A DNA stretch of 61,787 bases from Deltaproteobacteria bacterium (GTDB lineage Bacteria; Myxococcota_A; Polyangia; Haliangiales; Haliangiaceae). Position numbers and translations under genes: made by a program. The notes beneath the pieces are model-generated. The model did not search any database, was not told the DNA's origin, and worked only from the letters and a program-made list of their open reading frames with translations. Each line of letters opens with the position of its first letter. Position 1 is the stretch's first letter. The DNA lies in NCBI GenBank assembly GCA_019237945.1, contig JAFAOG010000040.1, forward strand, positions 1 through 61,787. Direction: 5' to 3'. Positions 7,277-42,766 of the stretch are shown piece by piece.

Positions 7277-7729
7277 TCAGCCGTAGCAGTCGACGGGCAG
7301 GTCGCTGAACGTGCGCTCGGCCTGCCGCTTGTGGCACGCGTTGCACTCGACGATCGCGTGCGCACCGGTCAGCGGCATGCGCGTGCGGCGGTGCTGCTCG
7401 AGCTGCGCGACGTCGCTCCACGCGACCGCCGTGTGGCACTCGTAGCACTGGCCGTCCATGCGGCCCTGGTGCGGATCGCGGTGGCAGCCATCGCACGTCT
7501 CGCTGACCTGCGCGCCGTGGTGACACTCCTGACATCCGGTCTGCACGTGCTTGCCGCGCAGCGGGAACCCGGTCTTGTCGTGATCGAAGCCGGACTTCGC
7601 GGCGCCGCCGGCGAGCTTCCACGAGTCGCTCGTGTGGCACGCGCTGCAGTCGAGGCCCGCCGTGAGGCCGTCGTGCGCGTCGGCGAATGCCGTCGAGCAG
7701 AGGAGCAGGAGCACGAACAGCGCCTTCAC
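7277..7729 (-). CDS. N-terminal part of the decahaem cytochrome c (signal peptide + 5 CxxCH), ending at an in-frame TGA inside a sixth CxxCH
   Basis: Signal peptide MKALFVLLLLCSTAFA. Motifs CSACH, CQECH, CDGCH, CYECH and CNACH. Ends ...VDCYG-TGA-H. ATGA overlap with the upstream gene at 7726-7729. Confidence 0.75.
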   Translation of the reverse strand: MKALFVLLLLCSTAFADAHDGLTAGLDCSACHTSDSWKLAGGAAKSGFDHDKTGFPLRGKHVQTGCQECHHGAQVSETCDGCHRDPHQGRMDGQCYECHTAVAWSDVAQLEQHRRTRMPLTGAHAIVECNACHKRQAERTFSDLPVDCYG

Positions 7730-9522
7730 TTCGTCGGCCCCTTGTGCGGATCGGCGTGGCAGTCACGGCACGCGAAATAGCCGAGCCGGTAGCGCACGCT
7801 CTTGTCGCCGTTCTTCAGCTCCTCGGTCGGATGGCACTTCGCGCACTCGAGCGGCTTGTGCGCGCCCTCGAGCGGGTAGCGCGTCTTGTCGTGATCGAAC
7901 TTGTCGATCTTCCACTGCTCGACGGTGTGGCACGTCGTGCAGGCCTTCACCGGCTCGCTCGTGCGGAACTGCCCGGCGTGCATGTCCTCGTGGCAGCCCT
8001 CGCAGTCGCGCGGGATCCCGCGGAATGCAGCCGCCTCGGCGCCCTGCGCGACGTTGCCGTGACAGCCCGCGCAGCTCGCCCGCGCGTGGGCGCCGGTCAG
8101 CGGGAACGTCGAGTGATCGATCTTCGCCTGCTTCCATGCCATCGCCGTGTGGCAGTGCGCGCAGCCTCCGAGCTTCATCTCCTTGTCGAACTGCGTGCCG
8201 TGCGGGTTCTCGTGACACTCCGCGCACTGCTGCTTCGGCTGCTTCCACGTCAGCCGCGGGCGCGCGCCCGGGTGACAGCCGCTGCACGGAGTCGCCGCGT
8301 GCTTGCCGTCGAGCGTGTAGCCGGTCTGCACGTGCTGCGCGACGCCGAACGTCGTCGGCGTGAAGCCGCCGACCGAGTGGCACTGGTCGCAGGCGAAGCC
8401 CTTCATCTCGCCCTTGTGCTTGTCGGCGTGGCACGCCTCGCACGTGCCGAACGCGACCTTGCGATAGCGCGCGTCCGCGGGCTTGCTCGGCGCGTGACAC
8501 GCGGTGCACGCGGTCGTCTCGTGCTTGCCGGCGAGCGGATACTTCGTCTTGTCGTGCGACGAGCGGCCGATCGAGTCGGGCAGGCCGATCCACTTGATCG
8601 ACGCGTGACACGACTCGCATTTGTTGCCGAACGGCGCGTCGTGGACGTTCGGATGACACGCGACGCACGTCGAGCCCTTCGTCGGCGGCTTGTCGTTACC
8701 GCGGTCGTGACACGTCTTGCATCCGACCTTCGCGTGGCCATTCGCGAGCGAGACGACGGGATGCGCGCCGCCCTTGAGCGACGCCTCGCTCGCCTGCCAG
8801 CCCTTCGTGTCGTGACACTCGGCGCACGGCTTCGGCTTGAACGACGGGCGGTGCGGATCGGCGTGGCACTGATCGCACGTGTTGAACGCGAGCGGTTGCC
8901 ACTTCGGCGGCGCGCCGTGGCACTTGTCGCACACGACCGGTGCGTGCTGGCCGGTCAGCGGATAGCGCGTCAGGTTGTGATCGAACGTCCGCTGATCGAA
9001 CGCCTGCCACTTCGTGACGTTGTGGCACTTCTGGCAGGCCGCGGTGAACCGGCCCTTGTGCGGATCGGCGTGGCAGCTTCCGCAGGCGGTCGGCGTCTGC
9101 ACGAACTGCGGCTTGCCCTGCGGCGACTTCTTCGTGTGGCACTTGAGGCACGTCGGTGCGACGTGGCCACCCTCGAGCTTGTAGCCGGTCTCGTTGTGAT
9201 CGAGCTTCTCCATCGCGCCGCCCGGCCAGCGCGTCAGCTTCGCGCCGCGCCCGAGGTGATCGACGTGGCACTCCTCGCACGCCTTGCCCTTGTACGCGCG
9301 CCCGTGCAGGCCGCGCCCGCCGGCGATCTCGGCGCCGAGGTCCTTGTGGCAGTCGAGGCACAGGCGCGCGACGACCTGCTTGCCGGACTCGTGGCACTTG
9401 CTGCAGTCGTCGTCGCTGTCGATGTTCGCGTGCGCGCTCGCGAGCGGGCCGGGCGAGAGCAGCTGCGCGTGCGCGAAGCTCGGCCACGCGACCATCACCG
9501 CGAGCAGGACGATGTACTTCAC
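7726..9522 (-). CDS. Large periplasmic multihaem cytochrome c (about 598 aa; I count 23 CxxCH motifs)
   Basis: GTG start gives the signal peptide (M)KYIVLLAVMVAWPSFAHA and a GTGA overlap with the upstream gene. An alternative ATG lies at 9495. Reiterated modules F-D-H-x2-T-x-Y-P-L-x-G-x-H-x4-C-x2-C-H. The first 305 codons of ORF 7726..10437 are shadow sequence overlapping the real gene 9519..10355. Confidence 0.85.
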   Translation of the reverse strand: MKYIVLLAVMVAWPSFAHAQLLSPGPLASAHANIDSDDDCSKCHESGKQVVARLCLDCHKDLGAEIAGGRGLHGRAYKGKACEECHVDHLGRGAKLTRWPGGAMEKLDHNETGYKLEGGHVAPTCLKCHTKKSPQGKPQFVQTPTACGSCHADPHKGRFTAACQKCHNVTKWQAFDQRTFDHNLTRYPLTGQHAPVVCDKCHGAPPKWQPLAFNTCDQCHADPHRPSFKPKPCAECHDTKGWQASEASLKGGAHPVVSLANGHAKVGCKTCHDRGNDKPPTKGSTCVACHPNVHDAPFGNKCESCHASIKWIGLPDSIGRSSHDKTKYPLAGKHETTACTACHAPSKPADARYRKVAFGTCEACHADKHKGEMKGFACDQCHSVGGFTPTTFGVAQHVQTGYTLDGKHAATPCSGCHPGARPRLTWKQPKQQCAECHENPHGTQFDKEMKLGGCAHCHTAMAWKQAKIDHSTFPLTGAHARASCAGCHGNVAQGAEAAAFRGIPRDCEGCHEDMHAGQFRTSEPVKACTTCHTVEQWKIDKFDHDKTRYPLEGAHKPLECAKCHPTEELKNGDKSVRYRLGYFACRDCHADPHKGPTK

Positions 9523-10355
9523 GCAAAGATCCAGCGGTAGCCGTAGTGCCACGCGACGAGCGCGTGCAACAGCACCGCGATGATCATCAGCAGCGCGAAG
9601 AACCGGTGGAGGCCGCGCCACGTCCGAAGCAGCGCGCTGATCCCCTGCGCGCGAGCATCCGCTGCACTCGTCCGGTAGAGGTCGCGCTCCGCTCGCTTGA
9701 GCGGCTTCGTCATCTTGTGCGGCATCATCATCGCGAGCGCGACCCGGCGTGCTTTCGCGGCCGCGCGCCATTTCGGGATCGCGGCGACGGCCGTCAGGAG
9801 GTTTGCATTCGCGGCGACCGTCGGACCCGGTCGCTTCTGCATCGCGAGCACGAGGTCCTCGCGCATGCCGGGGAACTCGGTCTCGAACGCGTCGATCGCG
9901 GCGTCGAGGCGCTGCTGCGTGTTGCTCGGCGCGAGGAAGTGAAGCAGCCGGCCGAGCACGCCGGTCAAGACGACCATCGCGAGCGAGATCGTCGACGTCG
10001 TCGCGATCGGCGTGCGCAGCTGGAACGCCGAGTGGAACGACACCAGCGACGCGATCATCAGGCCCGTGAACACGTGGATGTCGAGCCACACCGCCATCGA
10101 GCCCCAGCGCGTGCCGCCGAGCCGTCGCCGCACGAGGTAGCCGAGGTTCAGGATGATCAGCAGCGCGGCGATCCAGCCGTAGCCGTTGCCGAGCATTCCG
10201 CTCGGGCGCAGCGTGCGGAAGTCGGGATGCTCCGGGCGATCTTGAACCGACATCCAGTAGAACGACCACCCGCGTGCCGCGAGGATGATCGTGGTGGCGA
10301 CGACGACGAGCGCGAGGCTCACCGTCAGCGCCGGACTTCTCCGGGTTGCAGACAT
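9519..10355 (-). CDS. Polytopic membrane protein, first gene of the cytochrome operon (possible b-type cytochrome/quinol-interacting subunit)
   Basis: 278 aa with at least 5 hydrophobic segments carrying His residues (WLDIHVFTGL, LVSFHSAF, RLLHFLAP, AVLLHALVAWHY). Good codon bias. Function is inferred from operon context only. Confidence 0.7.
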   Translation of the reverse strand: MSATRRSPALTVSLALVVVATTIILAARGWSFYWMSVQDRPEHPDFRTLRPSGMLGNGYGWIAALLIILNLGYLVRRRLGGTRWGSMAVWLDIHVFTGLMIASLVSFHSAFQLRTPIATTSTISLAMVVLTGVLGRLLHFLAPSNTQQRLDAAIDAFETEFPGMREDLVLAMQKRPGPTVAANANLLTAVAAIPKWRAAAKARRVALAMMMPHKMTKPLKRAERDLYRTSAADARAQGISALLRTWRGLHRFFALLMIIAVLLHALVAWHYGYRWIFA

Positions 10356-10739
10356 CTCCCGGCGCGGACGTTAAGCCCGCGTGAATCGAAAACGGAAGCG
10401 CACGACCCCTGTCATCGCACGACGAAACACTGTGCAAAGTGCGTACACCGAGACGCAGACTTCGAATTTGAAAATGAAATGCAGAGTCCCGTATGTCGGA
10501 TGTTTCGTACGATCAGCGTCTTGTACGTCTCGGGACAGTCAACGTCAGCAAGCTCACGGATCTTACGCGAACCTCAGCGCGAGTCATCGCCGATTCGCGC
10601 ACATCCGCGAACGACGGATCGCGCGGTTGGATCCTCTGTCGATGTCACGAAGGTTGGAGCACCAACAATTCTTACTCGTTGACGCCTACATCAGCGTGAG
10701 CCGAGCGTGAGCCCGATGATCACGGGGAGATCTATTTTT

Positions 10740-12302
10740 ATGCGTCTTCACCTGTTCGCTCCGCTGCTGTTCGTCGGTGCGTGCGCGACCGATCCGGCGA
10801 CCGATACCACCGAGCAAAACGCGTCCGTCACGCACGGCAAGGACGTGTGGTTCAAGAGCACGTTCGGCGGTGAAAAGCTCTTCAGCATCATCCTGCCGGG
10901 CCCGCCGTTCAACCTGACGCTCGGTCTGGATGCCGCGCTGACGTCGCCTCGCGACACGCGCTTCACGCAGTACGGTCTGATCAACGACCCGGACTGCGTG
11001 CAAGGTGACGCGTCGAGCGGCTACCTCGACAAGTGCGCCGATCCCGAGTCGGCGGGTGTCGTCGGCGTGCGCAAGAAGATCATCCTGACGGCGGGCGGAC
11101 CGAAGGTCCTCGTCGGCGTCGCGTGCGCCGCGTGTCACGCGGGTCTCGATGCGGCGAACCCGCCGGCGGATCCGAATCACCCGACGTGGGCGAACATTCA
11201 CGCGACGACGGGCAACCAGTACATCCAGATCGGCAAGCTGTTCGGCGCGCATCTGTCGCCGCACGATCCGCGCAAGCAGGTCTTCGATACGTGGGCGCCG
11301 GGCACCGTCGACACGACGGCGATCGAGTCCGACGGCGTCAACAACCCGGGCATCATCACCCAGTTCTTCAACACGCCCGAGCGCCCGTACTTCGACCTGA
11401 CCGACAACGGTCTCGCGATCCACGTGCACCGCGGCGGTCAGGGCGGCGAGGACGACGCGGGCTGCGAGAAGGCGGCGCTGCGCGTCTACTTCAACATCGG
11501 CATGTGCGCGGCCGAGTGCATGGTCCCGCACCTCGCGAACGGCCCGGGCGGCACGCAGACGCCGATCGACGACGCGGAGTGCAGCTCGCGCTGCCCCGAC
11601 TACGTGCAGGCGAAGGCCGACGTCGTCGACGAGTGCGCGTTCATGGCGACCAACACGCCGCCCGCGCTGCCGGCGAGCTACATCGATCAGGGCAAGGCGA
11701 ACCACGGCCGCGAGGTGTTCCGGAAGAACTGCGCGGGCTGCCACAACAACGGCGAGAAGCTCCAGGACGACACGATCCTCTCGGATGACCTGATCCATCC
11801 CGCGGCGGAGATCGGCACGAACTCGTGTCGCTCGAAGTCGACGAACTGGACCGCGGGTCACATCTGGGCCGAGTTCTCGTCGGATCAGTACAAGGCGCGC
11901 CCGACCGGCGGCCCGGGCTTCTACCGCGACGTCCCGCTGACGGCCGTGTGGGCGACCGCGCCGTTCTTCCACAACAACCGCCTCGGTACGTACAACGGTG
12001 ACCCGTCGATCAATGGCCGTCTCGCCGCGTACTACGACGCGATGGATCAGCTGCTGAACCCGTGGAAGCGCGACCTGCTGGGCTCGATCCTGCGCACGAG
12101 CGACTGGATCCAGATCCCGACGCCGCTCGGCCCGGCGACGCTGCCGGCCGGCACGCCGGTCGCGCTGTTCGCCAACGCGAATCCGGCGAACCCGCTCGAG
12201 AACCGCTGCCCGGACCTCGTCGAGAACGAGGGCCACTACTACGGCGCCTTGCTCTCCGACAAGGACAAGGAATCGCTCGTCGAGTTCCTGAAGACGAAGT
12301 AA
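10740..12302 (+). CDS. Di-haem cytochrome c peroxidase-like lipoprotein
   Basis: Met12 of ORF 10707..12302. Lipobox LLFVGAC. Two CxxCH motifs (CAACH, CAGCH). APFFHNNRLG resembles the distal-haem region of the CCP/MauG family. Confidence 0.75.
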   Translation: MRLHLFAPLLFVGACATDPATDTTEQNASVTHGKDVWFKSTFGGEKLFSIILPGPPFNLTLGLDAALTSPRDTRFTQYGLINDPDCVQGDASSGYLDKCADPESAGVVGVRKKIILTAGGPKVLVGVACAACHAGLDAANPPADPNHPTWANIHATTGNQYIQIGKLFGAHLSPHDPRKQVFDTWAPGTVDTTAIESDGVNNPGIITQFFNTPERPYFDLTDNGLAIHVHRGGQGGEDDAGCEKAALRVYFNIGMCAAECMVPHLANGPGGTQTPIDDAECSSRCPDYVQAKADVVDECAFMATNTPPALPASYIDQGKANHGREVFRKNCAGCHNNGEKLQDDTILSDDLIHPAAEIGTNSCRSKSTNWTAGHIWAEFSSDQYKARPTGGPGFYRDVPLTAVWATAPFFHNNRLGTYNGDPSINGRLAAYYDAMDQLLNPWKRDLLGSILRTSDWIQIPTPLGPATLPAGTPVALFANANPANPLENRCPDLVENEGHYYGALLSDKDKESLVEFLKTK

Positions 12303-12807: not shown

Positions 12808-13395
12808 CTAGCCAGCGCGCAGCTCGTGCTTTCCGTTGTTGCCGATCGTCTCGACCGTCGACGCCTGCGGGCCTTCGTTGCCCTGCTCCTCGGCGAAGCG
12901 GACCTCATCGCCGACCTCGAGGCCGTCCATCTTGCCCCCGAGCACGCTGTTGCGATGGAAGTAAACGCGGCGGCCGTCGTCGGGCTCGATCCAGCCCCAC
13001 TCCTTCTCGACGTCGAGGAACGTGACGACGCCATGCAGCCGATCGCCGCCGTTGTGCGACTTGACGTCGCGACGCAGGCGGACGCGCACCGCGTCCTCGA
13101 GCTGGCGCTTCGCGGCCTGGAACGCATCGCGCAGCGCGACGTAGACGTCCTCGTGCGCACCGTCCGGACCCGGATCGTGGCTCGACACGACCTCGCCGCC
13201 TGGAATCGTCAGGCGGACCGTGATGCTGAACGCATTGCCCTTGCGATGCCGGTGATGCGGCTGGCCGATGATGACCTCGCAGCGCGTGATGCGATCGTAG
13301 ACGCGTTCGAGCTTGTCCACCCACTCGCGGCAGCGAGTCTCGACGGCGTCACTGTGCTCGATATCCCGGAACGTGATCTCGACAGGAATCTGCAT
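12808..13395 (-). CDS. HPF/RaiA-type ribosome-associated domain fused to a cold-shock (CSD/OB) domain
   Basis: Start at MQIPVEITFRDIEHSDAVE (typical HPF N-terminus). C-terminal part GVVTFLDVEKEWGWIEPDDGRRVYFHRNSV...VGDEVRFAEEQG is CspA-like. Confidence 0.8.
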   Translation of the reverse strand: MQIPVEITFRDIEHSDAVETRCREWVDKLERVYDRITRCEVIIGQPHHRHRKGNAFSITVRLTIPGGEVVSSHDPGPDGAHEDVYVALRDAFQAAKRQLEDAVRVRLRRDVKSHNGGDRLHGVVTFLDVEKEWGWIEPDDGRRVYFHRNSVLGGKMDGLEVGDEVRFAEEQGNEGPQASTVETIGNNGKHELRAG

Positions 13396-13512
13396 GATTC
13401 TCTGTGACTGCATCGCTCGCGCCATTGCGCTCACAGTAGGCACGCGGAGTTGTGCGCAAACACCGCGTGGCGGTTGCGCACGGTCCGCAGTCGACGCGCG
13501 CTAGGAAGTTCT

Positions 13513-13782
13513 CTACGCGACGCGGACCCAGCCGTCACCGGGAGGCGGCTCGGGAGCTGCCTGAACCGGTGCCTGCTCGCGCTGGTGCATCATCATCATC
13601 ATCGGAAGCAGCATCATCATCGGATTTTGGTTGCTCTGGCTCGCGTTCTTCGCGAGGTCCTGAATCGACGACATCAGCTGCGTCAGCATCTGCGTGACCG
13701 CATCGTCCGAGCTCGCACCGCCGGTGACGGCGGCCAGCTGGCCCGGATCGATCGTGGGAATCTCGTCCTTGGTGTTCGACAT
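13513..13782 (-). CDS. Double-glycine-leader precursor peptide (89 aa), Cys-free, Ser/Thr- and Met-rich
   Basis: Met45 of ORF 13513..13914. Leader MSNTKDEIPTIDPGQLAAVTGG. Core ASSDDAVTQMLTQLMSSIQDLAKNASQSNQNPMMMLLPMMMMMHQ... Divergent from the NAT/exporter/LanB operon, with a 140-nt spacer. Confidence 0.65.
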   Translation of the reverse strand: MSNTKDEIPTIDPGQLAAVTGGASSDDAVTQMLTQLMSSIQDLAKNASQSNQNPMMMLLPMMMMMHQREQAPVQAAPEPPPGDGWVRVA

Positions 13783-13922
13783 GGCTACCGCCTTTGGTGG
13801 ATGCGCAGCCGTCACCACAGCAGCGGACGTGCCACGCCGCTCTCGCCGTGCTTCCGCGCGCTTGCGCGGTTCGGGCGAGGGTGGGGACCCCGGTTCGTCT
13901 ACCGCGGGTAACATCGCCGCGG

Positions 13923-14669
13923 ATGGACTACTTCGAGCGCATCGGGCTCGAGCGGCCGCGCGAGCCGACGTTCGCGGCGCTCTCGGCGATCGTCGGGAAT
14001 CACGTCCGCGCGATCCCGTTCGAGAACCTCGACGTCCTGCTCGGCCGCCCGCCGCGCCTCGATCTCGAGTCGCTGCGCCAAAAGCTCGTCGCGTCGCGCC
14101 GCGGCGGCTACTGCTACGAGCACGCGACGCTGTGCGCCGCCGAGCTCGAGGCTATCGGCTTCGCGGTGCGGCGTCACAGCGCGCGCGTCGTCATGGTCAC
14201 GCCGCGGGACAAGGCGCCTCGCACGCACATGTTCCTGACCGCGATGAACCACGTCCTCGATCCGGGGTTCGGCGGGCTCGCGCCGCACGCACCGGTGCCG
14301 CTCGATGGCACGCCGGTCGGCCATCACCGCGTCGTGCGCGAGGGCACCGAGCTCGCGCTCTATCACGGCGACCAGCGGCTGTGGGTGTCGTCGCTCGAGG
14401 CCGACCTGCCCGTCGACTTCGAGATGGCGAACCACTTCACCGCGACGTGGCCGCAGTCGCCGTTCGTGCAGCGGCTGATGCTGCGCGCGTTCACGCCGGA
14501 GGGCCGGATCACGGCGATGAACCGCGATGTGACCATCGTGCGGGGCGGCGAGACATCGACGCGCCAGCTCGCCGACCGTGCCGAGCTGCAGCGCCTGCTC
14601 TACGATGTGTTCGCAATCGACTGCGACATCTCGCAGCTCCGGGTTCCGACGATTCCCGAGTGGGGGTAG
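13923..14669 (+). CDS. Arylamine N-acetyltransferase (NAT family)
   Basis: MDYFERIGL..., IPFENLDVLLG, and RRGGYCYEHATL (catalytic Cys motif RGGxCxE). Lies 21 nt upstream of the next gene. Confidence 0.9.
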   Translation: MDYFERIGLERPREPTFAALSAIVGNHVRAIPFENLDVLLGRPPRLDLESLRQKLVASRRGGYCYEHATLCAAELEAIGFAVRRHSARVVMVTPRDKAPRTHMFLTAMNHVLDPGFGGLAPHAPVPLDGTPVGHHRVVREGTELALYHGDQRLWVSSLEADLPVDFEMANHFTATWPQSPFVQRLMLRAFTPEGRITAMNRDVTIVRGGETSTRQLADRAELQRLLYDVFAIDCDISQLRVPTIPEWG

Positions 14670-14690
14670 CTCGGGATATGATGCGGCGTC

Positions 14691-16438
14691 ATGGGCACGG
14701 TCGCCGTGGTGTGCTCGGATCACTCCGTCGAGGACTGGGTGTTTCGTGCGCTCGATGGCGCGCTCGTGATCGTCGATGTCGCGCCTGCGGACGTCATGGT
14801 GATCACCGAGGACTGCCTCGAGGCGATCGTCGCGCACGTGCCGCCGGAGAGCTCGGTCGTCGTGCTCGGCGAGCCGACGCGGACGTACTCGCGCGCGGAC
14901 TTCGTGATCACGCGCAGCTGGCGCGAGCACGACCTCCAGCGCCTGCTCGTCGCGCTCGCGAATCACAAGCCGCTGGCGCTGCCGCCGCTCGGTACGCCCG
15001 AGAATCCGGCGGAGGCCCGCGATGCGCAGCGCGCGTTGCTCGCGACGCGCAAGATGTCGACCGCGACGGACCTCGCGAGCACGGAGGCGATGACGGTCGA
15101 GAACGTCGTCGAGCTCGTCGATGCCGATCGTGCGTACTGCCTGTACTACGACGCCGAGAGCGCGGCGCTGTGGTCGGAATCTCGCCGCGGCGGCGAACCG
15201 ATGTCCGCGATCGTCGGAATGGCGGCGTTCGCGGCGAGGACCGGGCATCCGGCCGTCGCGCCGAAGGTCGGGGAGGATCCGCGGTTCTTCGGCGCCATCG
15301 ACGATCCGCAGGCCGACGAGGGCGATCACACCCTCGCGCAGCCGATCCTCGGCGCGGATGGTCTCGTGCACGCGGTCGTCGTCGTGTCGCGACGTGTGAA
15401 CCGGCCGTTCTTTCGGGATGCCGAGGTTCGCCTGCTCGCGCGGTTCGCGCAGCTCGCGGCACCGGTGCTCGATCAGCTGTCGATCCACGTCCATAGCGAG
15501 GCGCTGCTCGAGGAAGAGGCGGCCGAGAATCCGGTGTTCCGGCGCGCCGCGATCCAGGCGGCATCGGCGCCGACCTGGGGCGATGTCGTGCGCGTGTCGC
15601 CGAGCTGGATCACGTGGGCGTACTGGGTGCTCGTCGCGGTGCTCGTCGCCGCCGGCGTGTTCACGTTCGTCGGGCGCGTGTCGACGTATTCCGCGGGTCC
15701 GGCGATCGTGCGGTCGACGGCGCGCACGCCGATCGCAGCGCGCAACGGTGGGATCGTCGTCGCGCTCGACGTGTCGCCGGGCGATCGCGTAGCCGCGGGC
15801 GCTCCGATCGCGCGTCTCGACGACAGCGAGCAGCGTGCGGCCGTCGATCACCTGCAGCGCGAGCTCGAGACGCAGCTGCGCGCGCACATGCTCGATCCGG
15901 GCGACCTCGCGGCCGACAGCGCGCTGCGGACGATCCGGCACGACCTCGACGGTGCGAAGACGGCGCTCGACGAGCGCGTGATCCATGCGCCGGTCGCGGG
16001 CGTGATCGGCGACGTGCGCGCGCGGTCGAGCCAGCGACTCGAGCCCGGTGACGTGATCGCGACCGTCGTCGATAGCAACGAGGCGCTCGAGGTGATCGCG
16101 CTCTTGCCCGGCGAGGATCGCCCGCAGCTCGCGCCGGGGATGACGGTGCGGCTCGAGCTCGCCGGCTATCGGTATGCGTATCAATCGTTCGCGATCGAGA
16201 ACGTGTCGCAGGACGTGATCGCGCCGGCCGAGGCGAAGCGCGTGCTCGGCGCCGAGGTTGCCGATGGCCTGGCGCTGCCGGGACCGGTCGTGATCGTGCG
16301 CGGCAAGCTCGCGAAGCCGGAGTTCGTCGTCGACGGACGCACGCTGCGGTACCACGACGGCATGGTCGGCACCGCCGAGGTGCGCGTGCGCTCGGAGCCG
16401 ATCGTGTACGCGCTCGTGCCGGGCACGCGGAGGTTTCA

Positions 16439-16442
<4 letters not shown>
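14691..16442 (+). CDS. Cytoplasmic pseudo-receiver + GAF domain fused through one TM helix to a HlyD-family secretion adaptor
   Basis: GAF-like region (DRAYCLYYD..., GMAAFAARTGHPAVAPKVGEDPRF, LAQPILGADGLVHAVVVVSRR). TM helix WAYWVLVAVLVAAGVFTFV. HlyD hairpins (GIVVALDVSPGDRVAAGAPIARLDD, IHAPVAGVIGDVRA). Confidence 0.85.
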
Positions 16443-18678
<2,236 letters not shown>

Positions 18679-18682
<4 letters not shown>

Positions 18683-19533
18683 AGCGCCTGCTGCTGGTGC
18701 TGATCGCGGCGTGCGGAGTCGATCGCGGTCCCGCGCCTGCGCCCGCGCCGGCCCCGGCTCCGGTCAAGCCGGCGACGCGCGATGCGGCCGCCGCGCCCGA
18801 GGAATTCGTCGGCGTGCTCGCCGCCGCGCAGTCGGTCGACATCGCGCCGCGCGCGGCCGGGGTCGTGATGAAGCTCGATGTCGCGACGGGCGACGCCGTG
18901 ACGATGGGGCAGGTCGTGGCCGAGATGGATCCGGTCGGCCTGCAGGAGGAGCTGCGCGCCGCCGAGGCCGCGCTCGGAGCCGCGACGGCCGCGCATCGCC
19001 AGGCGATCGTCGACGTCGAGGATGCCAAGCGCAAGGTCGCGCTCGAGACGCAGGCGGTCGCCGATGGCGTGAGCGCGCGCAGCGTCCTCGAGGAGGCGAA
19101 GTTCGCGGTCAAGCGCGCGGAGGCCGCGGAGCAGAAGGCGGCCGCGACGCAGGCGGCGGAGGCTTCGCGCGCCCAGACCGCACGCGATCACGTCGGCGAT
19201 ACGCAGCTGCGCGCGCCGTTCGACGGCACGGTCGCGCAGCGCTTCCACGATGCCGGCAACCGGATCGAGGCCGGCGGCGCGATCCTGCGGATCGTCGGCA
19301 ACGGCGGCATGCGGCTGCGGTTCGCGGTGCCGCCCGATCGCGCGCACGCGCTGGCGCTCGGCGCGAAGGTCATGGCGACGATCGATACGGTCGCGGCGCC
19401 CGTGGCGGCGACGATCAAGCAGATCTCGCCGACGATCGACGCCGCATCGGGCATGGTGATCGTCGAGGCGGAGCTCGCCGATGGCGGCGGCGGTGCATTG
19501 CGGCCCGGTCTCGCTGCGCGGGTGAAGCCGTGA
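18679..19533 (+). CDS. Periplasmic adaptor (HlyD/RND MFP-type) lipoprotein
   Basis: Tail of ORF 16585..19533 starting at a GTG (GTGA overlap). Lipobox LIAAC, PAPAPAPAP linker, coiled-coil Ala/Glu region, then LRAPFDGTVAQRF. Confidence 0.8.
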
Positions 19534-22500
19534 GCGCGAAGAAACCGGCGACGACCGAACCGGCGCGCACGCACAAGCTCGCCGAGCGGTTCGTGCTGCG
19601 CTCGCCGGTGCTGCCGCTCGCCGCGCTCGAGCACCTCGACGTCCGCGCGCTACTCGCGGACCCGGGCGTGCGCGAGGCGCTGTTCATCGCATCGCCGGAG
19701 CTGACGACCGCGCTCGAGGCCGGCAGCACCGACCCCGGCGTGCTGCGCGCGGCCGTTCGCTACCTGTCGCGCATGGCGTTCCGCGCGACGCCGTTCGGGC
19801 TGTTCTCCGGTGTCGTGACCGGGACGTTCGCGGCGACGAGCGAGCTCCGGCTCGCCCCGCGCACCGAGCACGATCGCCACACGCGCCTCGACAACGACTA
19901 CCTCGCGAAGCTGTGCGATGCGATCGCCGCCGACCCGGCGATGCGCGGCGAGCTGACGTTCGGGCCGACGTCGAGCCTCTATCGCGTCGGCGACAAGTAT
20001 CGCTATGCGGCCGGCAAGCTGATCCGCGAGGTGCGCGAGTACCACCTCGTCGCGATCGATGCGACGCCGTACCTCGACGCGGTGATCGAGCGGGCGCGTG
20101 CCGGGGCCACCCTCGACCAGCTCGCCGCGGTGCTCGCGAGCGATCCCGAGCTGACGCGCGAGGAGATCGACGGCTATCTCGGCGAGCTCGTCGCCGTGCA
20201 GCTGCTGGTCCCGACGCTGCAACCGCGCGTGACCGGCCCCGAGCCCGCAACCGTGCTGCGCGGAATGCTCGATGCGATGCCGTCGGCGCGCGGGTTCGCG
20301 AGCGTGCTCGGCGATGTCAGCGCGCGGCTCGCCGCGATCGACGAAGCGCATGGCGCGGCGCCCGAGACCTATCGCGCGATCGCGGCCGCGCTCGAGCCGC
20401 TGCCCGCGAAGGTCTCGATCGCGCGCCTGTTCCAGGTGGACGTCACGCTGCGTGCCCCGGTCGTCACGCTCGGGCCGCGCGTCGCCGCCGAGATCACGCG
20501 CGCGTTCGAGCTCACGCGCAAGCTCGTGCCCGCTCGCAACGACGAGGCGTGGAGAAAGTTTCGCGAGCAGTTCAACACGCGCTACGAGACGCGCGAGGTG
20601 CCGCTCGTCGAGGTGCTCGACGAGGAATCGGGGATCGGCTTCGGCACGCCGAGCGGTGACACCGCCCAGGCGCCGCTGATCCGCGACCTGCCGTTCCCAG
20701 CGATGGCGGCGGGCGACCGCACGTTCACGGCACGCGAGGCGACGCTGCTGCGCCTGGTCGGCGAGTCGCGCGGCGCGACCGAGCTGGTGCTCTCCGATGC
20801 CGATGTCGCGGCGCTCGCCCACGATCCGGGCCCGCTCGCCGACACGGTGACGTTCACCGTGCGCATCGCCGCCGCGTCGCGCGAGGCACTCGACCGCGGC
20901 GACGTCACGATCGACTCGAACGGCTTCACGAGCGCCTCCGCGACGCGTCTGCTCGGCCGCTTCTGCCATGGGTCGCGCGAGGTGCACGCGTTCGTCGACG
21001 AGCTGGTCGCGCGCGAACACGCGCTCGCCGGCGACGCCATCCTCGCCGAGATCGTGCACCTGCCCGAGGGCCGGCTCGGCAACATCCTGCTGCGCCCCGT
21101 GCTGCGCGAGTACGAGATCCCGTACATGGGCACGAGCGGCGCGCGGGCCGACAAGCAGATCCCGATCACCGATCTGCTCGTCTCGGTGCACGGCAGCCGC
21201 GTCGTGCTGCGATCGCGCCGGCTCGGCCGCGAGGTCCGCCCGCAGCTCGCGACCGCGCACAACTATGGCCTGCGCAGCCTCGCGATCTATCGCTTCCTGT
21301 GCGCGCACGCGTCGCAGCACACCGAGGGCGGCCAGTGGTCGTGGGGCGCGCTCGAGTCGTTGCCGTTTTTGCCGCGCGTGCGCCACGGCAAGGTCCTGCT
21401 CGCGCGCGCGACGTGGTCGGTGCGCAAGCCCGACCTCGAGAAGCTCACCGACCCGGCCTCCGCCCGCGCGCTGCGCGATCGCCGAGGGCTGCCGCGCTGG
21501 ATCGTCGTCGCCGACGGAGACAACGAGCTGCCGGTCGACTTCGACAACGATGCGTCGCTCGACGCGTTCGTCCAGATCGTGCGCTCGCGCGAGGCCACGC
21601 AGCTCGTCGAGATGCATCCGGCGCCCGATCAGCTGATCGTCGACGGCGCCGACGGCAAGCACACCCACGAGATCGTCGTCGCGTTCGTGCGCGAGCAACC
21701 GGCGCCGCAGCGGCCCGTCGACGTGAGGCCGGTGACCGTCGAGCGCCGCTTCCCGCCCGGCTCGCGCTGGCTCTACGCGAAGCTCTACGCCGGCACGGCG
21801 ACGCTCGATGCGCTGCTGCGCGAAGCGATCGCACCGCTCGTGCGCGAGGCCATCGCGACCGGGATCGCCGATCGCTGGTTCTTCCTGCGCTACGCCGATC
21901 CGGACGACCACGTGCGGCTCCGCTTTCACGGCGATCCGGCGCGCCTCGCCGAGCTGCTGCCGCGCCTCGCCGAGCTCCCCGTGCGCCGCCTCGTGCTCGA
22001 TACGTACGAGCGCGAGGTCGAACGCTACGGCGGCGATCGCGGCATCGAGCTCGCGGAGCACATCTTCGCGGCCGACAGCGAGGCCGTGCTGACGATCGTC
22101 GAGCACACGCGGGGCGACGAGGGCGCCGACGTGCGGTGGAAGCTCGCGGTGCTCGGCCTGGATCTCATGGCGCGCGATCTCGGGCTCGATGTCCCGGCGA
22201 GACTCGCGCTTGCGACGCGCGTCCGCGATGGCTTCGCGGCCGAGCACGGCGTCGATACCGCATTCCAGAAGCGCCTCGGCGACAAGTTCCGCGCGCACGC
22301 GACCGAGCTCGCCGCGCTGCTCGCGACCCGGCTCGACGATCCGGATCACGACTACGCGCCCGGGCTCGAGGCGTTCGCCGCGCGCTCCGCCGCGATCGCG
22401 CCGCTCGCCGCCGAGATGCGCGCGCATGTCTCGTCGGTCGACGACGTGCTCGCGAGCCTGTGGCATATGCACGTCAACCGCATGCTGCCGAGCATGCAGC

Positions 22501-22580
22501 GCCGCCAGGAGCTCGTGATCTACGACCTATTGCGGCGCCACTACGACGGCGTGATCGCACGCCAGCGAGCGAAGAAATGA
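19530..22580 (+). CDS. Full-length LanB-type lantibiotic dehydratase family protein (N-terminal glutamylation + C-terminal elimination/SpaB_C-like domains)
   Basis: GTG start (GTGA overlap). FVLRSPVLPL, the FRATPFGLFSGV motif, and the C-terminal RWFFLRYADPDDHVRLRFHG motif typical of the thiopeptide/lanthipeptide dehydratase C-terminal domain. 1016 aa. Confidence 0.9.
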   Translation: MSAKKPATTEPARTHKLAERFVLRSPVLPLAALEHLDVRALLADPGVREALFIASPELTTALEAGSTDPGVLRAAVRYLSRMAFRATPFGLFSGVVTGTFAATSELRLAPRTEHDRHTRLDNDYLAKLCDAIAADPAMRGELTFGPTSSLYRVGDKYRYAAGKLIREVREYHLVAIDATPYLDAVIERARAGATLDQLAAVLASDPELTREEIDGYLGELVAVQLLVPTLQPRVTGPEPATVLRGMLDAMPSARGFASVLGDVSARLAAIDEAHGAAPETYRAIAAALEPLPAKVSIARLFQVDVTLRAPVVTLGPRVAAEITRAFELTRKLVPARNDEAWRKFREQFNTRYETREVPLVEVLDEESGIGFGTPSGDTAQAPLIRDLPFPAMAAGDRTFTAREATLLRLVGESRGATELVLSDADVAALAHDPGPLADTVTFTVRIAAASREALDRGDVTIDSNGFTSASATRLLGRFCHGSREVHAFVDELVAREHALAGDAILAEIVHLPEGRLGNILLRPVLREYEIPYMGTSGARADKQIPITDLLVSVHGSRVVLRSRRLGREVRPQLATAHNYGLRSLAIYRFLCAHASQHTEGGQWSWGALESLPFLPRVRHGKVLLARATWSVRKPDLEKLTDPASARALRDRRGLPRWIVVADGDNELPVDFDNDASLDAFVQIVRSREATQLVEMHPAPDQLIVDGADGKHTHEIVVAFVREQPAPQRPVDVRPVTVERRFPPGSRWLYAKLYAGTATLDALLREAIAPLVREAIATGIADRWFFLRYADPDDHVRLRFHGDPARLAELLPRLAELPVRRLVLDTYEREVERYGGDRGIELAEHIFAADSEAVLTIVEHTRGDEGADVRWKLAVLGLDLMARDLGLDVPARLALATRVRDGFAAEHGVDTAFQKRLGDKFRAHATELAALLATRLDDPDHDYAPGLEAFAARSAAIAPLAAEMRAHVSSVDDVLASLWHMHVNRMLPSMQRRQELVIYDLLRRHYDGVIARQRAKK

Positions 22581-23917
22581 CGCCGGGCGAGCGCATCGAC
22601 AACCGGTTCGTCGTCGAGAAGCTGGTCGCGACCGGCGGGATGGGCGTCGTCTATCGCGCGCAGGACACGCAGACCGGCCAGCCGGTAGCGCTCAAGGTGC
22701 TCGAGACACGCAGCGCCGAAGACGTGATCCGCGCGATCCAGGAAGTCGAGCTGCTCGCGAAGGTCAACCATCCGGGCATCGTCCGCCACATCGCCGACGG
22801 CCTGACGAAGGACGACGTCCAGTACCTCGCGATGGAGTGGATCGAGGGCCCGACGATCGCCGACCGCATGGAGAAGGACGGCTTCTCGCAGCGCGAGGTC
22901 GTCGAGGTCGGCCGCGCGGTCGCCGCGGGCCTCGGGGCCGCGCACGCGCACGGCATCATTCACCGCGACATCAAGCCGACGAACATCATCCTCGAAGGCA
23001 ACGAGTGCACGCGCGCCCGCGTGATCGACTTCGGCCTCGCGCGCCTCGCCGGCCCCGGCCAGCGCTCGCTGACGCGCACGGGCATGACGCTCGGCACGCC
23101 CGGCTACATGGCGCCCGAGCAGGCGCGCGGCCGCCGTGATCTGCTGCCCGCCGTCGACGTGTTCTGCCTCGCGACGATCCTCTACGAGTGCCTGACCGCG
23201 ACCGCCGCGTTCACCGGCAGCTCGCTCGCGTCGTTGATGGCGAACGTGATCCTCGCCGAGCCGACGCCGATCCTCGACATCGTGCCGACCGCATCTCCCG
23301 ACCTCGCCGCCGCGATCACGCAGATGCTGGTCAAGGACCCAACGCTGCGTGTCGCGAACGGCAATGTCGCGGTCGCCGTGTTCGACGCGCTCGCCGACAT
23401 CCCCGACGGCCCCCGCCGCCGCCGCATCGAGAGCGGCGCTCCCCCGACCGTCCGCGCCCACACCGGCGGCGCGGTCGCCACCCACGGCCTCGTGCTCGCG
23501 ACCCGCGGCTTCGTCGACGACATCGTCGATCCGCCCGCGCCGAGCGAACAGGCCCTCCTCCACGACGCGGCCGCCGCCGTCGGCGCCGTCCTCGAGGTGC
23601 TCGCGACCGGCTCGGTCGTCGTTCACTTCGCAGGCACCGCTCGCGACATCGCGGCCCGCGCCGCCCGCTGCGCGCTCGCGATCAAGCACATCCTGCCGCA
23701 GTGGGCGGTCGCGATCTCGACGCTCGACCCGGCGCTGACGCTCGTCTCCGACGCGGGCACCGACCTCCTCGGCCGCGCCGCAAAGGCCGCGATCTTCGCG
23801 AAGACGCCGGAGGCCCGCGGCGCGATCCTCGTCGACCCGCAAACGGCCAACTATCTCGACGGCACGTTCGAGATCGATCGCACGTCGCCTCCGCGCCTCC
23901 GGGGCGTCAAACGCTGA
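22577..23917 (+). CDS. Ser/Thr protein kinase with an uncharacterised C-terminal domain of about 170 aa
   Basis: ATGA overlap with the LanB stop. Motifs GGMGVVYRA, ALKVL, HRDIKPTNIIL, DFGLAR and GTPGYMAPE. Confidence 0.9.
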   Translation: MTPGERIDNRFVVEKLVATGGMGVVYRAQDTQTGQPVALKVLETRSAEDVIRAIQEVELLAKVNHPGIVRHIADGLTKDDVQYLAMEWIEGPTIADRMEKDGFSQREVVEVGRAVAAGLGAAHAHGIIHRDIKPTNIILEGNECTRARVIDFGLARLAGPGQRSLTRTGMTLGTPGYMAPEQARGRRDLLPAVDVFCLATILYECLTATAAFTGSSLASLMANVILAEPTPILDIVPTASPDLAAAITQMLVKDPTLRVANGNVAVAVFDALADIPDGPRRRRIESGAPPTVRAHTGGAVATHGLVLATRGFVDDIVDPPAPSEQALLHDAAAAVGAVLEVLATGSVVVHFAGTARDIAARAARCALAIKHILPQWAVAISTLDPALTLVSDAGTDLLGRAAKAAIFAKTPEARGAILVDPQTANYLDGTFEIDRTSPPRLRGVKR

Positions 23918-23934
23918 AGAGGACCAGATTGATG

Positions 23935-24017
23935 GGCCCCAAAGAACCCAAAGAACCCTAAGCCCAGAAAGACGAAGCCGGTCTCTTCCCTTTGGGTCCT
24001 TTGGGTTCTTTGGGGCC
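23935..24017. terminator. 24-bp-arm inverted repeat (23/24 paired) in a convergent intergenic region; likely bidirectional terminator or RNA-stability hairpin
   Basis: Arms GGCCCCAAAGAACCCAAAGAACCC (23935-23958) and GGGTCCTTTGGGTTCTTTGGGGCC (23994-24017), with a 35-nt loop. Lies between the kinase stop (23917) and the dehydrogenase stop (24040). No U-tract. Confidence 0.45.
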
Positions 24018-24039
24018 AACCCCTCCGGGATCCGAGCCG

Positions 24040-25347
24040 CTACGCGGCGACGGTGAAGAAGCGCGCCGGCTCGTGCGGCTCGTCGTAGAGCGCGCGGCCC
24101 GCGATCGCGACCTCGGCGAGCACCGGCGGCACCATCAGGCCCTCGCGGTCGAGCAGGTCGATCGTGCGCGCGGCGCCGATCGCATCGACGAGGACCGAGG
24201 GTGGGGCCCAGTTGAAGCCGAAGCCCATGATGCGGTCGACGTCGCGCGGGTGCTCGACGACCTCGCCGACGCGGCCGAGCGCGTACGAGATGTAGCCGAG
24301 CATGATGCGGCGCAGGAGCTTGGCGTCCTGGCCGTCGGTGGTGCAGAGCACGTCGAAGGCTTCGGCGTGCTTGCCGTCGCGGAGCGCGTGCTTCATGCGC
24401 TCGATGAACGTCGGCATCGGCGGCTGGACCTCGGCGAGCTTGGCGTAGTCGCCGGTCGCCGGATCGAGGACGAACGTGATGGCGTCGGCGCCCTTGCCCT
24501 CGACGCGGAAGAAGCCGCCCTTGTCGCGCGTCTTGCGGCCGAGGTGACCGCGGTCGATCATGCGCTGCATGTAAGCGGGGAGGGCGAAGTCGTCGTGGCA
24601 CTCGTCGCGCGTCGTCGCGTGGAGGTTGTCGACGATCGCCTTGTGGACGTCCCAGCCGACGAGATCGATCGTCGCGAGCGGCGCGAGCGCGCGGCCGGTG
24701 TGCGTGCCGACGAGCTGATCCATGTACGCGACGCCGTGTTGCTCGGCGAGCATCGCGACCTCGTTGAGCAGCTTGAAGCCGATGCGGTTGCCCGCGAACG
24801 CCGGCGTGTCCGCGCAGGTGACGACGACGCGATCGAGCGCCGACTCGAGCAGCTCCTTGACGGCGGTCGTGACCTGCGGGTCGGTGCCGGTGTGGGGGAT
24901 CAGCTCGCAGCCGCGGATGATCGTCGGCGGGTTGAAGAGGTGGATGCCGAGGAAGTGGGCGCGGAAGTCGTCCGACTGACCGGCGCACATCGCGGCGATC
25001 GACAGGCCCGACGAGACGGTCGCGACGACCGAGCCCTGCGCGCGCACGCGATCGACCTGCGCGAACACCTGGCGCTTCGTCTCGAGGTCCTCGGCGACGC
25101 ACTCGAAGATCAGATCGGCATCGGCGGCGACGGTCGCGAGGTCGTTGTCGTACGTGCCGACCGCGATCGACTTCGGCGCGACCTTGCCCTTCGACATCTG
25201 CTCGGCCTTGGCGCGCCCGGCCTCCGCCTTCTCGATCGTGCGAGCCAGCATCGTGGTGGGAATGCCGGCAGAAGCGAAGATGGCCGCGGCACCCGCACCC
25301 ATCGCACCATTCGCACCTAGGACGACGATCTTTCGAATTGCTCGCAT
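24040..25347 (-). CDS. 3-hydroxyacyl-CoA dehydrogenase family protein
   Basis: N-terminal Rossmann fold VVLGANGAMGAGAA. FLGIHLFNPP, the HFFNP-type motif of 3HCDH enzymes. 435 aa. Confidence 0.9.
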   Translation of the reverse strand: MRAIRKIVVLGANGAMGAGAAAIFASAGIPTTMLARTIEKAEAGRAKAEQMSKGKVAPKSIAVGTYDNDLATVAADADLIFECVAEDLETKRQVFAQVDRVRAQGSVVATVSSGLSIAAMCAGQSDDFRAHFLGIHLFNPPTIIRGCELIPHTGTDPQVTTAVKELLESALDRVVVTCADTPAFAGNRIGFKLLNEVAMLAEQHGVAYMDQLVGTHTGRALAPLATIDLVGWDVHKAIVDNLHATTRDECHDDFALPAYMQRMIDRGHLGRKTRDKGGFFRVEGKGADAITFVLDPATGDYAKLAEVQPPMPTFIERMKHALRDGKHAEAFDVLCTTDGQDAKLLRRIMLGYISYALGRVGEVVEHPRDVDRIMGFGFNWAPPSVLVDAIGAARTIDLLDREGLMVPPVLAEVAIAGRALYDEPHEPARFFTVAA

Positions 25348-42581: not shown

Positions 42582-42766
42582 GGGGACGCTTTCTCACTTA
42601 TCAACCATTCGAAGTGAGTGTTCGCGCGAACTTAGCTGGGGACGCTTTCTCACTTATCAACCATTCGAGGCACGTCGCCCCGGTTGGGTTGTGAAGTGAG
42701 AAAGCGTCCCCGATCAAGTGTGCGAAAACTCTCGGGAGCGTGGGTTGAGAAGTGAGAAAGCGTCCC
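42582..42766. repeat. Palindromic repeat element: two direct plus two inverted copies of a ~30-nt unit with 56-nt spacing
   Basis: GGGGACGCTTTCTCACTT occurs at 42582-42599 and 42638-42655. Its reverse complement AAGTGAGAAAGCGTCCC(C) occurs at 42694-42711 and 42750-42766. Flanking ATCAACC/GGTTG(T/A)G extends the pairing. Lies in a convergent intergenic region of visibly lower GC. Confidence 0.75.

Follow-up and report, generated by a model that had tools for sequence, protein, structure and literature searches.

A LanC-less lanthipeptide dehydratase cassette and its resident neighbours in a myxobacterial contig

We describe a chain of five genes, encoding among others a class I lanthipeptide dehydratase (LanB), an exporter with a C39 peptidase domain and a Ser/Thr kinase, in the Deltaproteobacteria bacterium contig JAFAOG010000040.1 (assembly GCA_019237945.1). 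The whole stretch analysed, 61,787 nt (61.8 kb) with a GC content of ~69%, is referred to as the window. No gene for the cyclase LanC accompanies the LanB. The explanation we prefer, and think probable though well short of certain from the comparisons below, is that the genes at 14691-23917 are an accessory, LanC-less derivative of those class I clusters whose LanA precursors carry an LxLxKx5L motif and end their leader in Gly-Gly. The LanA and any LanC would be encoded elsewhere, the kinase and a GAF domain would be regulatory, and two adjoining genes, for an 89-residue protein (pep89) and an arylamine N-acetyltransferase (NAT), would be unrelated.

An earlier note on this DNA had instead seen in pep89 the dedicated precursor of a new class of peptide made on the ribosome and modified after translation (RiPP), dehydrated but ring-free, with NAT as a tailoring enzyme. 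It was right that there is a genuine LanB-containing, LanC-less unit for export and modification, as the conserved junction between adaptor and LanB genes and the apparent purifying selection indicate, but the roles given to pep89 and NAT, the absence of rings and the new class are not supported by comparison with related loci.

The cassette and its LanC-less relatives

The features around the cassette, or module, are listed here with their positions in the window.

13513-13782, minus strand: pep89, 89-aa small protein; backbone gene adjoining the cassette
13819-13834, minus strand: sigma-54-type -24/-12 element TGGCACGTCCGCTGCT, a pattern match 37-52 nt upstream of the pep89 ATG
13923-14669, plus strand: NAT, 248 aa (PF00797, E = 7.6e-45), 140 nt from the pep89 start
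14664-24043, no strand: accessory segment relative to module-less relatives, from blastn breakpoints
14691-16442, plus strand: module gene 1, GAF-HlyD membrane-fusion protein, 583 aa; start 21 nt past the NAT stop
16439-18682, plus strand: module gene 2, C39-ABC exporter (PCAT), 747 aa
18679-19533, plus strand: module gene 3, lipoprotein periplasmic adaptor, 284 aa
19530-22580, plus strand: module gene 4, class I lanthipeptide dehydratase LanB, 1016 aa
22577-23917, plus strand: module gene 5, Hanks-type Ser/Thr kinase, 446 aa
23935-24017, no strand: palindrome of 83 nt, probable bidirectional terminator, between the convergent kinase and 3HCDH genes

This layout, with NAT 21 nt upstream of the five-gene chain and pep89 divergent at 140 nt, agrees in every coordinate with that first reported, and Pfam and NCBIfam confirm each of the six domain calls (GAF-HlyD, C39-ABC, adaptor, LanB, kinase and NAT). 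Successive cassette genes overlap by 4 nt (GTGA at 16439, 18679 and 19530, ATGA at 22577). The same overlaps occur at those equivalent junctions that the relatives L002, L018 and L019 possess and are therefore not due to chance (L-numbers denote fetched loci; the close relatives of cassette and backbone are, all of them, metagenome contigs). All five genes are full length, and the ratios of nonsynonymous to synonymous substitution rates (dN/dS), 0.14-0.32 between lineages 75-86% identical, indicate that each is under purifying selection.

The LanB matches both the glutamylation and the elimination domain of the family (Lant_dehydr_N, PF04738, E = 1.6e-154; Lant_dehydr_C, PF14028, E = 2.1e-66) and, with over 1400 homologues, finds its closest named relatives in metagenome-assembled genomes of Kofleriaceae (Myxococcota). 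It is homologous to MibB (5EHK), MadB (9G04) and NisB (4WD9); the two-domain architecture is the same and the clade-invariant motifs are retained, but the sequence relationship is distant (E-values from 2e-55 to 8e-34) and the window locus has no partner cyclase. The residues invariant in 25 clade members, and hence by definition present in the window LanB, include RATPFG, FFxRYxDP…HxRxR, YxRExERYGG and HMHxNR.

Comparison with related clusters suggests how the arrangement arose. In L001, whose LanB is 59% identical to that of the window, the gene order is GAF-HlyD, PCAT, adaptor, LanC and LanB, so that its LanC gene sits exactly where adaptor and LanB genes adjoin directly in the window. LanC is likewise present in L106 (LanB 60% identical), together with two LanAs, and in triplicate in L004 (57%), along with one LanA, an FHA-sigma-54 activator and a homologous 440-aa kinase. 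Closer still are L002, L018 and L019, with LanBs 75-80% identical (75% for L002), and in all three adaptor and LanB genes adjoin directly without LanC. Thus, as judged from gene order, at least four lineages conserve the LanC-less series of GAF-HlyD, PCAT, adaptor and LanB, three of them with a translationally coupled kinase added, and the cassette most likely descends from ordinary class I lanthipeptide clusters by loss of the LanC gene. A further locus, L107 (152-4700), encodes a LanB 58% identical to that of the window, with the gene for a 434-aa Ser/Thr kinase 35 nt upstream; in the 7 kb downstream there is no LanC, PCAT or LanA, and polysaccharide deacetylase and glycosyltransferase genes are found there instead.

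The absence of a LanC-like open reading frame (ORF) from the window was borne out in two ways. A tblastn search with the four LanCs of related loci gave a best E-value of 0.21 in the 61.8 kb, and a two-round LanC hidden Markov model (HMM) that recovered 72 LanCs in the fetched loci found none in the window, so a hidden LanC gene there was rejected. Pfam scans of most other called window genes yielded nothing RiPP-related. The window is not alone in this respect. Of 37 GTDB species-representative loci in which a related LanB is flanked by 8 kb or more on either side, 30 have LanC within range and seven are without it, which speaks against treating its absence as the mark of a new RiPP class. 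As a possible alternative cyclase, an extra enzyme shared by such loci was sought by clustering the neighbours of 29 LanC-less loci, but only exporters, kinases, sigma-54 regulators and sporadic families emerged.

Nor does the LanC-less state look like decay. The LanC-less subclade differs at just 10 of 284 strongly conserved LanB columns, none of them within the motifs named above, and LanB itself has a dN/dS of 0.23-0.29. Because so few columns have changed and dN/dS is low across the cassette, the LanC-less LanB appears to be a maintained variant, neither degenerate nor unique to this genome.

The export proteins are equally well preserved. GAF-HlyD matches GAF_2 (2.3e-8) and HlyD_3 (1.2e-13), as well as GAF and HlyD_D23, and comprises a cytoplasmic N-terminal region, a GAF domain at residues 126-261, one transmembrane helix predicted from a hydropathy peak at about residues 310-328 and a periplasmic HlyD-type domain. 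Its orthologues are 82% identical in L002 and 86% in L103, the same architecture is found in L001, and its dN/dS is 0.165. The exporter (Peptidase_C39 9.7e-34, ABC_membrane, ABC_tran) joins the C39 domain to a six-helix transmembrane ABC domain and an ATPase, with the C39 residues Q40..DC46G and His119, the Walker A motif and LSGGQ all intact and a dN/dS of 0.142 against L002. The adaptor (HlyD_3, HlyD_D23) is a second HlyD/RND-MFP-type protein, scoring 121 bits against TIGR01730, above the cutoff of 94.9; its N-terminus reads as a lipobox (…LIAAC).

At the far end, the kinase gene is followed by a near-perfect palindrome, each arm of which contains two copies of CCCAAAGAACCC. These are the only four occurrences of the word in the window, against 0.02 expected. 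The RNA fold of the palindrome has an energy of -57.4 kcal/mol (z-score -4.0), and it is a probable bidirectional terminator marking the end of the operon. Comparable word repeats are seen 3' of the kinase gene in L018 (5377-5572) and L019 (5806-5899), and the terminator may travel with the module.

The pep89 and NAT genes and the insertion site

The cassette sits in a conserved backbone with the order 3HCDH … pep89, S30AE/CSD, OsmC, cytochrome c, and a TonB-type receptor gene on the 3HCDH side. What lies between 3HCDH and pep89 varies between loci as follows.

L005/6: gene for a 74-aa protein alone
L007: 74-aa gene and NAT
L011: 74-aa gene, GNAT and NAT
L014: GNAT and NAT
L104/105: GNAT alone
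Window and L100-103: NAT and the five-gene module

In blastn comparisons with L007, L011, L009 and L005, backbone homology ends at 14663/14664 and resumes at 24039-24044; about 400 bp of L007 containing the 74-aa gene correspond to 9.4 kb in the window. The module is absent even from the closest backbone relative, L104/105, whose TonB, 3HCDH and CSD proteins are 94-95% identical to those of the window. Conversely, homology between L002 and the window begins at 14677 in a different context, with a WD40 kinase and a LanA gene upstream and neither NAT nor pep89. Since six lineages have pep89 without the module and one (L002) has the module without pep89, the two are separable. On this comparison the cassette is a newcomer to a variable spot in a Kofleriaceae-like backbone, downstream of a resident NAT gene. 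Composition offers no foreign-DNA signature: the module has 71.6% GC and the rest of the window 68.8%, a difference too small to argue from, while third-codon-position GC is alike (0.84-0.94 for pep89, NAT and the cassette genes; 0.84-0.96 for real window genes overall). By this measure pep89, NAT and the cassette genes all look like genuine coding sequence for DNA of ~69% GC. A plasmid origin was considered and rejected, the best plasmid LanB being just 35% identical.

The 74-aa protein, encoded at the insertion site in L005 (7785-8009), L007 (8748-8972) and L011 (6974-7192) and absent from the window, has one transmembrane helix and a CxxC…CxxC pattern (…PLACPACHYDG…RCRSCKAAF…).

The product of pep89 has, as first described, a double-glycine leader and a Cys-free remainder. 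The leader is minimal, 22 residues with the glycines at 21-22 and hydrophobic residues at -4, -7, -12 and -15, and it lacks an LxLxKx5L box. The 67 residues that follow, ending in PPGDGWVRVA, had been called rich in both Ser/Thr and Met; they are indeed rich in Met, with 10 of 67, but not in Ser/Thr, with 8 of 67 (12%). Among 31 homologues of 48-88% identity, L16 (-7), V19 (-4), G21 and G22 are invariant, the isoleucine at -12 is nearly so, and T30, S38, S39 and the C-terminal PPGDGW[IV]RVA are conserved. With a dN/dS of 0.12-0.33, pep89 is by these measures a real, conserved small-protein family of the Kofleriaceae, as yet uncharacterised. An AlphaFold2 model from 32 sequences was too poor to use (pLDDT 59).

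Several observations separate this family from the cassette. It is kept without the module in six independent lineages (L005/6, L007, L009, L011, L014 and L104/105), and pep89 sequences from module-bearing lineages (window, P0127) show no difference from those of module-less ones (P0123, P0141). The gene has its own promoter element: TGGCACGTCCGCTGCT is invariant in all eight aligned pep loci, module present or not, and two boxes upstream of it, CAAGCGCGCGGAA and CCCGCGGTAGACGAA, reaching to about 13905, are largely conserved across eight lineages. Together these suggest that the pep89 promoter is enhancer-dependent. No sigma-54-type element was found upstream of NAT, GAF-HlyD or 13 canonical LanA genes, so the element was discarded as a regulatory link between pep89 and the module. 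Finally, a PCAT gene adjoins pep89 only in the window and L100-103 and in none of the six module-less lineages with informative flanks, which implies that pep89 must normally use another exporter. These points, with the leader comparison below, leave little room for pep89 as a dedicated precursor.

NAT tells a similar story. It adjoins pep89 without the module in L007, L011 and L014, where 3HCDH lies directly beyond, and also on the short contigs L010, L013 and L017, which end before the next gene can be seen; it is absent from L005/6 and L104/105. A tailoring role is thus not borne out, NAT flanking pep89 where there is no module and GNAT replacing or accompanying it elsewhere, even if NAT is probably co-transcribed with the cassette in the window. 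The proposed neighbourhood of LanB, kinase, NAT and double-glycine peptide does recur in L100-103, but the pep89 of the six lineages is without the module and the module of L002 is without pep89 and NAT. The comparison shows pep89 and NAT to be resident genes independent of the cassette, and since both occur in most relatives without it, a new RiPP pathway joining them to the cassette is unlikely.

The acetyltransferase divergent from pep89 is itself variable: in most lineages it is NAT (PF00797) or GNAT (PF00583), the two occur together in L011 and L014, and L005/6 have none. The coordinates are 13923-14669 in the window, 7191-8677 in L011, 1106-2493 in L014 and 1941-2579 in L104. On this pattern of neighbours, pep89 may have some functional connection with acetylation.

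On its other side, pep89 (block 12808-13782, minus strand) is followed in the same direction by a gene whose product joins an S30AE-like domain of ribosome-hibernation type to a cold-shock domain (S30AE/CSD), for example in L005, L009, L017, L100 and L105. S30AE/CSD or OsmC is found 3' of pep89 in every locus with downstream sequence except the short contig L012, L016 showing only OsmC. OsmC usually comes next after S30AE/CSD and then cytochrome c, with Usp and 2-oxoglutarate-dependent oxygenase genes nearby. From its gene content the neighbourhood looks like one of stress or dormancy rather than of RiPP type. The backbone block has on its left a series of genes for multihaem cytochromes c (7277-12302), among whose products are Cytochrome_C7 and c3 repeats, a domain like that of MtrC/MtrF and a dihaem protein resembling RoxA.

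Substrate, kinase and competing explanations

What, then, might the LanB act on? Small ORFs beside related LanBs encode a two-part leader, KLxLxKETLRxL…ELxxVxGG, followed by short cores (22 LanAs). The combination of an LxLxKx5L motif with a Gly-Gly end and C39 proteases was described by Walker et al. (2020, PMC7268733) for some of the class I LanAs. The window LanB is orthologous to LanBs adjoining such LanAs in L002 (75% identity), L106 (60%), L004 (57%) and many GTDB loci. An HMM was built from the 22 leaders and applied to all six frames of the window. It finds the L106 LanAs, which were outside its training set, with E-values of 1.8e-9 and 4.7e-7. In the window its best match, within a large gene, has E = 0.29; the matches listed (E up to ~81) do not include pep89. 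A canonical LanA hidden in the window was also pursued by a strict double-glycine motif scan and a survey of intergenic small ORFs; the three approaches left only pep89. Searching the window for counterparts of the genes upstream of the L002 operon, a 348-aa erythromycin-esterase-like protein and the WD40 kinase, as a guide to a displaced LanA produced only a generic kinase-domain match.

In 41 of 43 leader-HMM matches the core contains Cys, and this extends to loci without LanC. The LanC-less sister L002 has a canonical two-Cys LanA, ELARAVGG followed by ATFTNTKGESDTCTVVSQKLDTCA, 3.5 kb upstream of the operon (1006-1182, minus strand). Canonical LxLxKx5L…GG LanAs containing Cys are likewise found in the LanC-less loci L029 (13335-14046), L057 (706-894) and L070 (9644-9877). 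With two to five Cys in the LanAs of these four loci and no LanC in the fetched flanks, the lack of LanC in an operon does not imply a Cys-free, ring-free product, as had been argued for the window. The earlier note had itself held that linkage of this LanB to LanC and a Cys-containing LanA would tell against it, and much of that linkage is indeed seen, among related LanBs. LanA genes need not be close by: none was detected within 10 kb in L001, despite its LanB, LanC and PCAT, and 17 of the 30 LanC-positive loci have no LanA by the leader HMM. The LanAs of this clade can, it seems from these loci, be remote from LanB.

On the preferred explanation, the LanB would use glutamyl-tRNA to dehydrate Ser/Thr of a canonical LxLxKx5L…GG LanA whose gene lies in another part of the genome, and any rings would be formed by a LanC in trans or non-enzymatically. 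The PCAT would cut the leader after the double glycine and, with GAF-HlyD and the lipoprotein adaptor, carry the product out through the Gram-negative envelope. The kinase, translationally coupled to LanB, and the GAF domain would serve as signalling inputs rather than as tailoring enzymes.

Myxobacterial Ser/Thr kinases work with FHA proteins or sigma-54 enhancer-binding proteins. The cassette kinase (Pkinase, 2.5e-42) has intact VALK, HRDIK, DFG and APE motifs. The 180 aa at its C-terminus form a domain that marks out a small family (16 clusters at E < 1e-10, chiefly kinases of ~440 aa), with a more distant resemblance to the stretch that separates Pkinase from AAA_16 in ~1290-aa STAND kinases. 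Such ~440-aa kinases are encoded 3' of LanB in the window, L018 and L019, 5' of LanB in L107 and inside the LanBC cluster of L004; the L004 homologue matches over its full length (36% identity), that of L107 over the kinase domain only. No kinase follows LanB in L002, and where other kinases adjoin related LanBs they are large signalling proteins of STAND or WD40 type. In L001, L004 (which has the kinase homologue as well) and L027, FHA or receiver sigma-54 activators lie beside LanB, unlike the window, where no enhancer-binding protein is present in or beside the module. A described myxobacterial LanBC cluster also contains a sigma-54 regulator (PMC11876861). Because its C-terminal domain is shared with STAND proteins, its homologue coexists with three LanCs in L004, L002 does without it and sigma-54 activators occur in related clusters, we read the kinase, together with the GAF domain, as a regulatory input; it is most likely regulatory and not a tailoring enzyme. 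The single-sequence AlphaFold2 model of the kinase was too poor to use (pLDDT 39). A role in anti-phage defence was set aside: generic kinase-domain models (PD-T4-6, mad6) were all that matched the kinase in PADLOC, and neither LanB nor pep89 had any match. The only FHA protein in the window is a trypsin-like protease with a C-terminal FHA domain, encoded beside an AAA+ winged-helix protein (42766-46415, minus strand), 20 kb from the kinase.

Some observations weigh against the preferred explanation. Neither a LanA nor a LanC for the module is seen in the 61.8 kb, and scans of the whole window for double-glycine leaders make pep89 the sole ORF with one. The adjacency of pep, NAT and module is repeated in a second lineage, L100-103, which shares its samples with L018. 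Six of the ten subclade-specific LanB changes fall within the first 200 residues, which would be compatible with altered partner or leader recognition. The 4-nt LanB-kinase overlap, kept in L018 and L019, could mean more than regulation.

The first alternative is that unmodified pep89 is a cargo of the PCAT and its two adaptors, which cleave and secrete it besides or instead of a lanthipeptide, the LanB acting on another substrate or on none. We regard this as possible but rather unlikely; it is compatible with our preferred explanation. The pep89 leader fits the generic C39 pattern, like the half of canonical LanA leaders nearest the double glycine, the catalytic Cys and His of the C39 domain are intact and the two genes are neighbours in two lineages. 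The separate regulation of pep89 and the missing PCAT in its module-less neighbourhoods, however, argue against it as cargo.

The original proposal goes further, making pep89 the dedicated precursor, with LanB dehydrating it without ring formation, NAT and/or kinase acetylating or phosphorylating it and the PCAT cleaving and exporting a linear dehydropeptide. A Cys-free dehydropeptide pathway of LanB, kinase and NAT would, if true, represent a new class of RiPP; in the light of the comparative evidence this is unlikely, and we think the proposal improbable. It can draw on two points given above for pep89, its double-glycine leader, the only one in the window, and its recurrence with NAT beside the module in L100-103, on the conservation of T30, S38 and S39 and on the LanC-less state being conserved and under selection. 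Yet pep89, these Ser/Thr included, is equally conserved in the six module-less lineages and does not differ with the module; the LxLxKx5L box and a leader-HMM match are missing; the invariant sigma-54 element has no counterpart at canonical LanAs; NAT occurs without the module and is interchangeable with GNAT; the module of L002 has neither partner; the core is 67 aa long with only 12% Ser/Thr; and Cys, which it lacks, is present in 41 of 43 clade LanAs.

A narrower version, to which we give no more credence, confines the pairing to the window lineage and L100-103/L018. The cassette would there have been recruited to the sigma-54-driven pep89, the LanB dehydrating some of the conserved T30, S38 and S39 even without an LxLxKx5L box and the PCAT secreting a long, linear, Met-rich dehydropeptide. 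If true, a class I dehydratase would serve a ring-free product, with the coupled kinase controlling or assisting it.

Very improbable, to our minds, is an orphaned remnant that has lost LanA and LanC and is decaying or idle. Their absence from the window is what one would expect of it, but the five genes are full length with low dN/dS, the catalytic motifs are intact and the start/stop overlaps are preserved.

Least probable of all is that the kinase-fold protein stands in for LanC as cyclase or scaffold, like RosX of class V lanthipeptides: LanB and kinase are coupled exactly where LanC is missing, the L107 kinase adjoins LanB with no LanC visible and kinase-fold cyclases exist, but RosX-type enzymes belong to LanB-free class V pathways (PMC12291118), all Hanks catalytic motifs are intact here as in true kinases, the homologue coexists with LanCs in L004, LanC-less L002 lacks a kinase after LanB and the other kinases beside related LanBs are of signalling type.

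Known systems and wider meaning

The nearest described systems are the class I clusters of Walker and colleagues (PMC7268733; pinensin-related group), which share with the window a full-length orthologous LanB, a C39 PCAT with membrane-fusion partners and the gene order of L001. The window differs in having neither LanC nor, in 62 kb, an LxLxKx5L LanA, in the translational coupling of a Ser/Thr kinase to LanB and in the fusion of a GAF domain to HlyD. Of the features of a class I lanthipeptide cluster it thus has the LanB and lacks both LanC (PF05147) and a LanA with recognised leader and Cys-containing core.

With double-glycine PCATs of the NHLP type (TIGR03796) and bacteriocin_ABC type (TIGR01193) the exporter has in common the C39 Cys and His, the ABC core and HlyD partners, but its scores are below cutoff for both (629.5 against 853.3 bits for TIGR03796, its best NCBIfam match; 428.5 against 523.85 for TIGR01193). 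Indeed, all scores for the NHLP/Nif11 equivalogs (TIGR03796, TIGR03797 and TIGR03794) fall short, and no NHLP or Nif11 precursor occurs in the window. As PCAT cargo, pep89 shows the leader pattern but not a consistent genomic linkage to a PCAT.

In synthetases of classes III and IV (LanKC, LanL) a kinase domain performs dehydration. A Hanks-type kinase domain is likewise found here in a lanthipeptide-related locus, but as a stand-alone protein with no lyase or LanC-like domain, scoring 100 bits against NF038150 (cutoff 650) and 64 against NF038151 (cutoff 575), and the LanB already supplies dehydration. The locus also differs from thiopeptides and other LanB-using RiPPs, having a single full-length LanB and, in the Pfam scans, no YcaO, [4+2] enzyme or other class-defining partner.

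The case illustrates that adjacency in a single genome is weak evidence for assigning a RiPP precursor. The pep89 family is nevertheless of interest in its own right, with its sigma-54-type promoter, Met-rich sequence and double-glycine leader, its linkage to S30AE/CSD and OsmC in nearly all of the loci sampled and, frequently, an acetyltransferase gene at its side. For lanthipeptide biosynthesis, Cys-containing LanAs in LanC-less loci raise the question of how cyclisation is achieved, whether by LanC in trans, spontaneously or by another enzyme. Genome mining that takes LanC as its anchor (as in Walker et al. 2020, PMC7268733) is blind to LanC-less LanB/PCAT cassettes, which make up about a fifth of this clade and appear to be maintained by selection.

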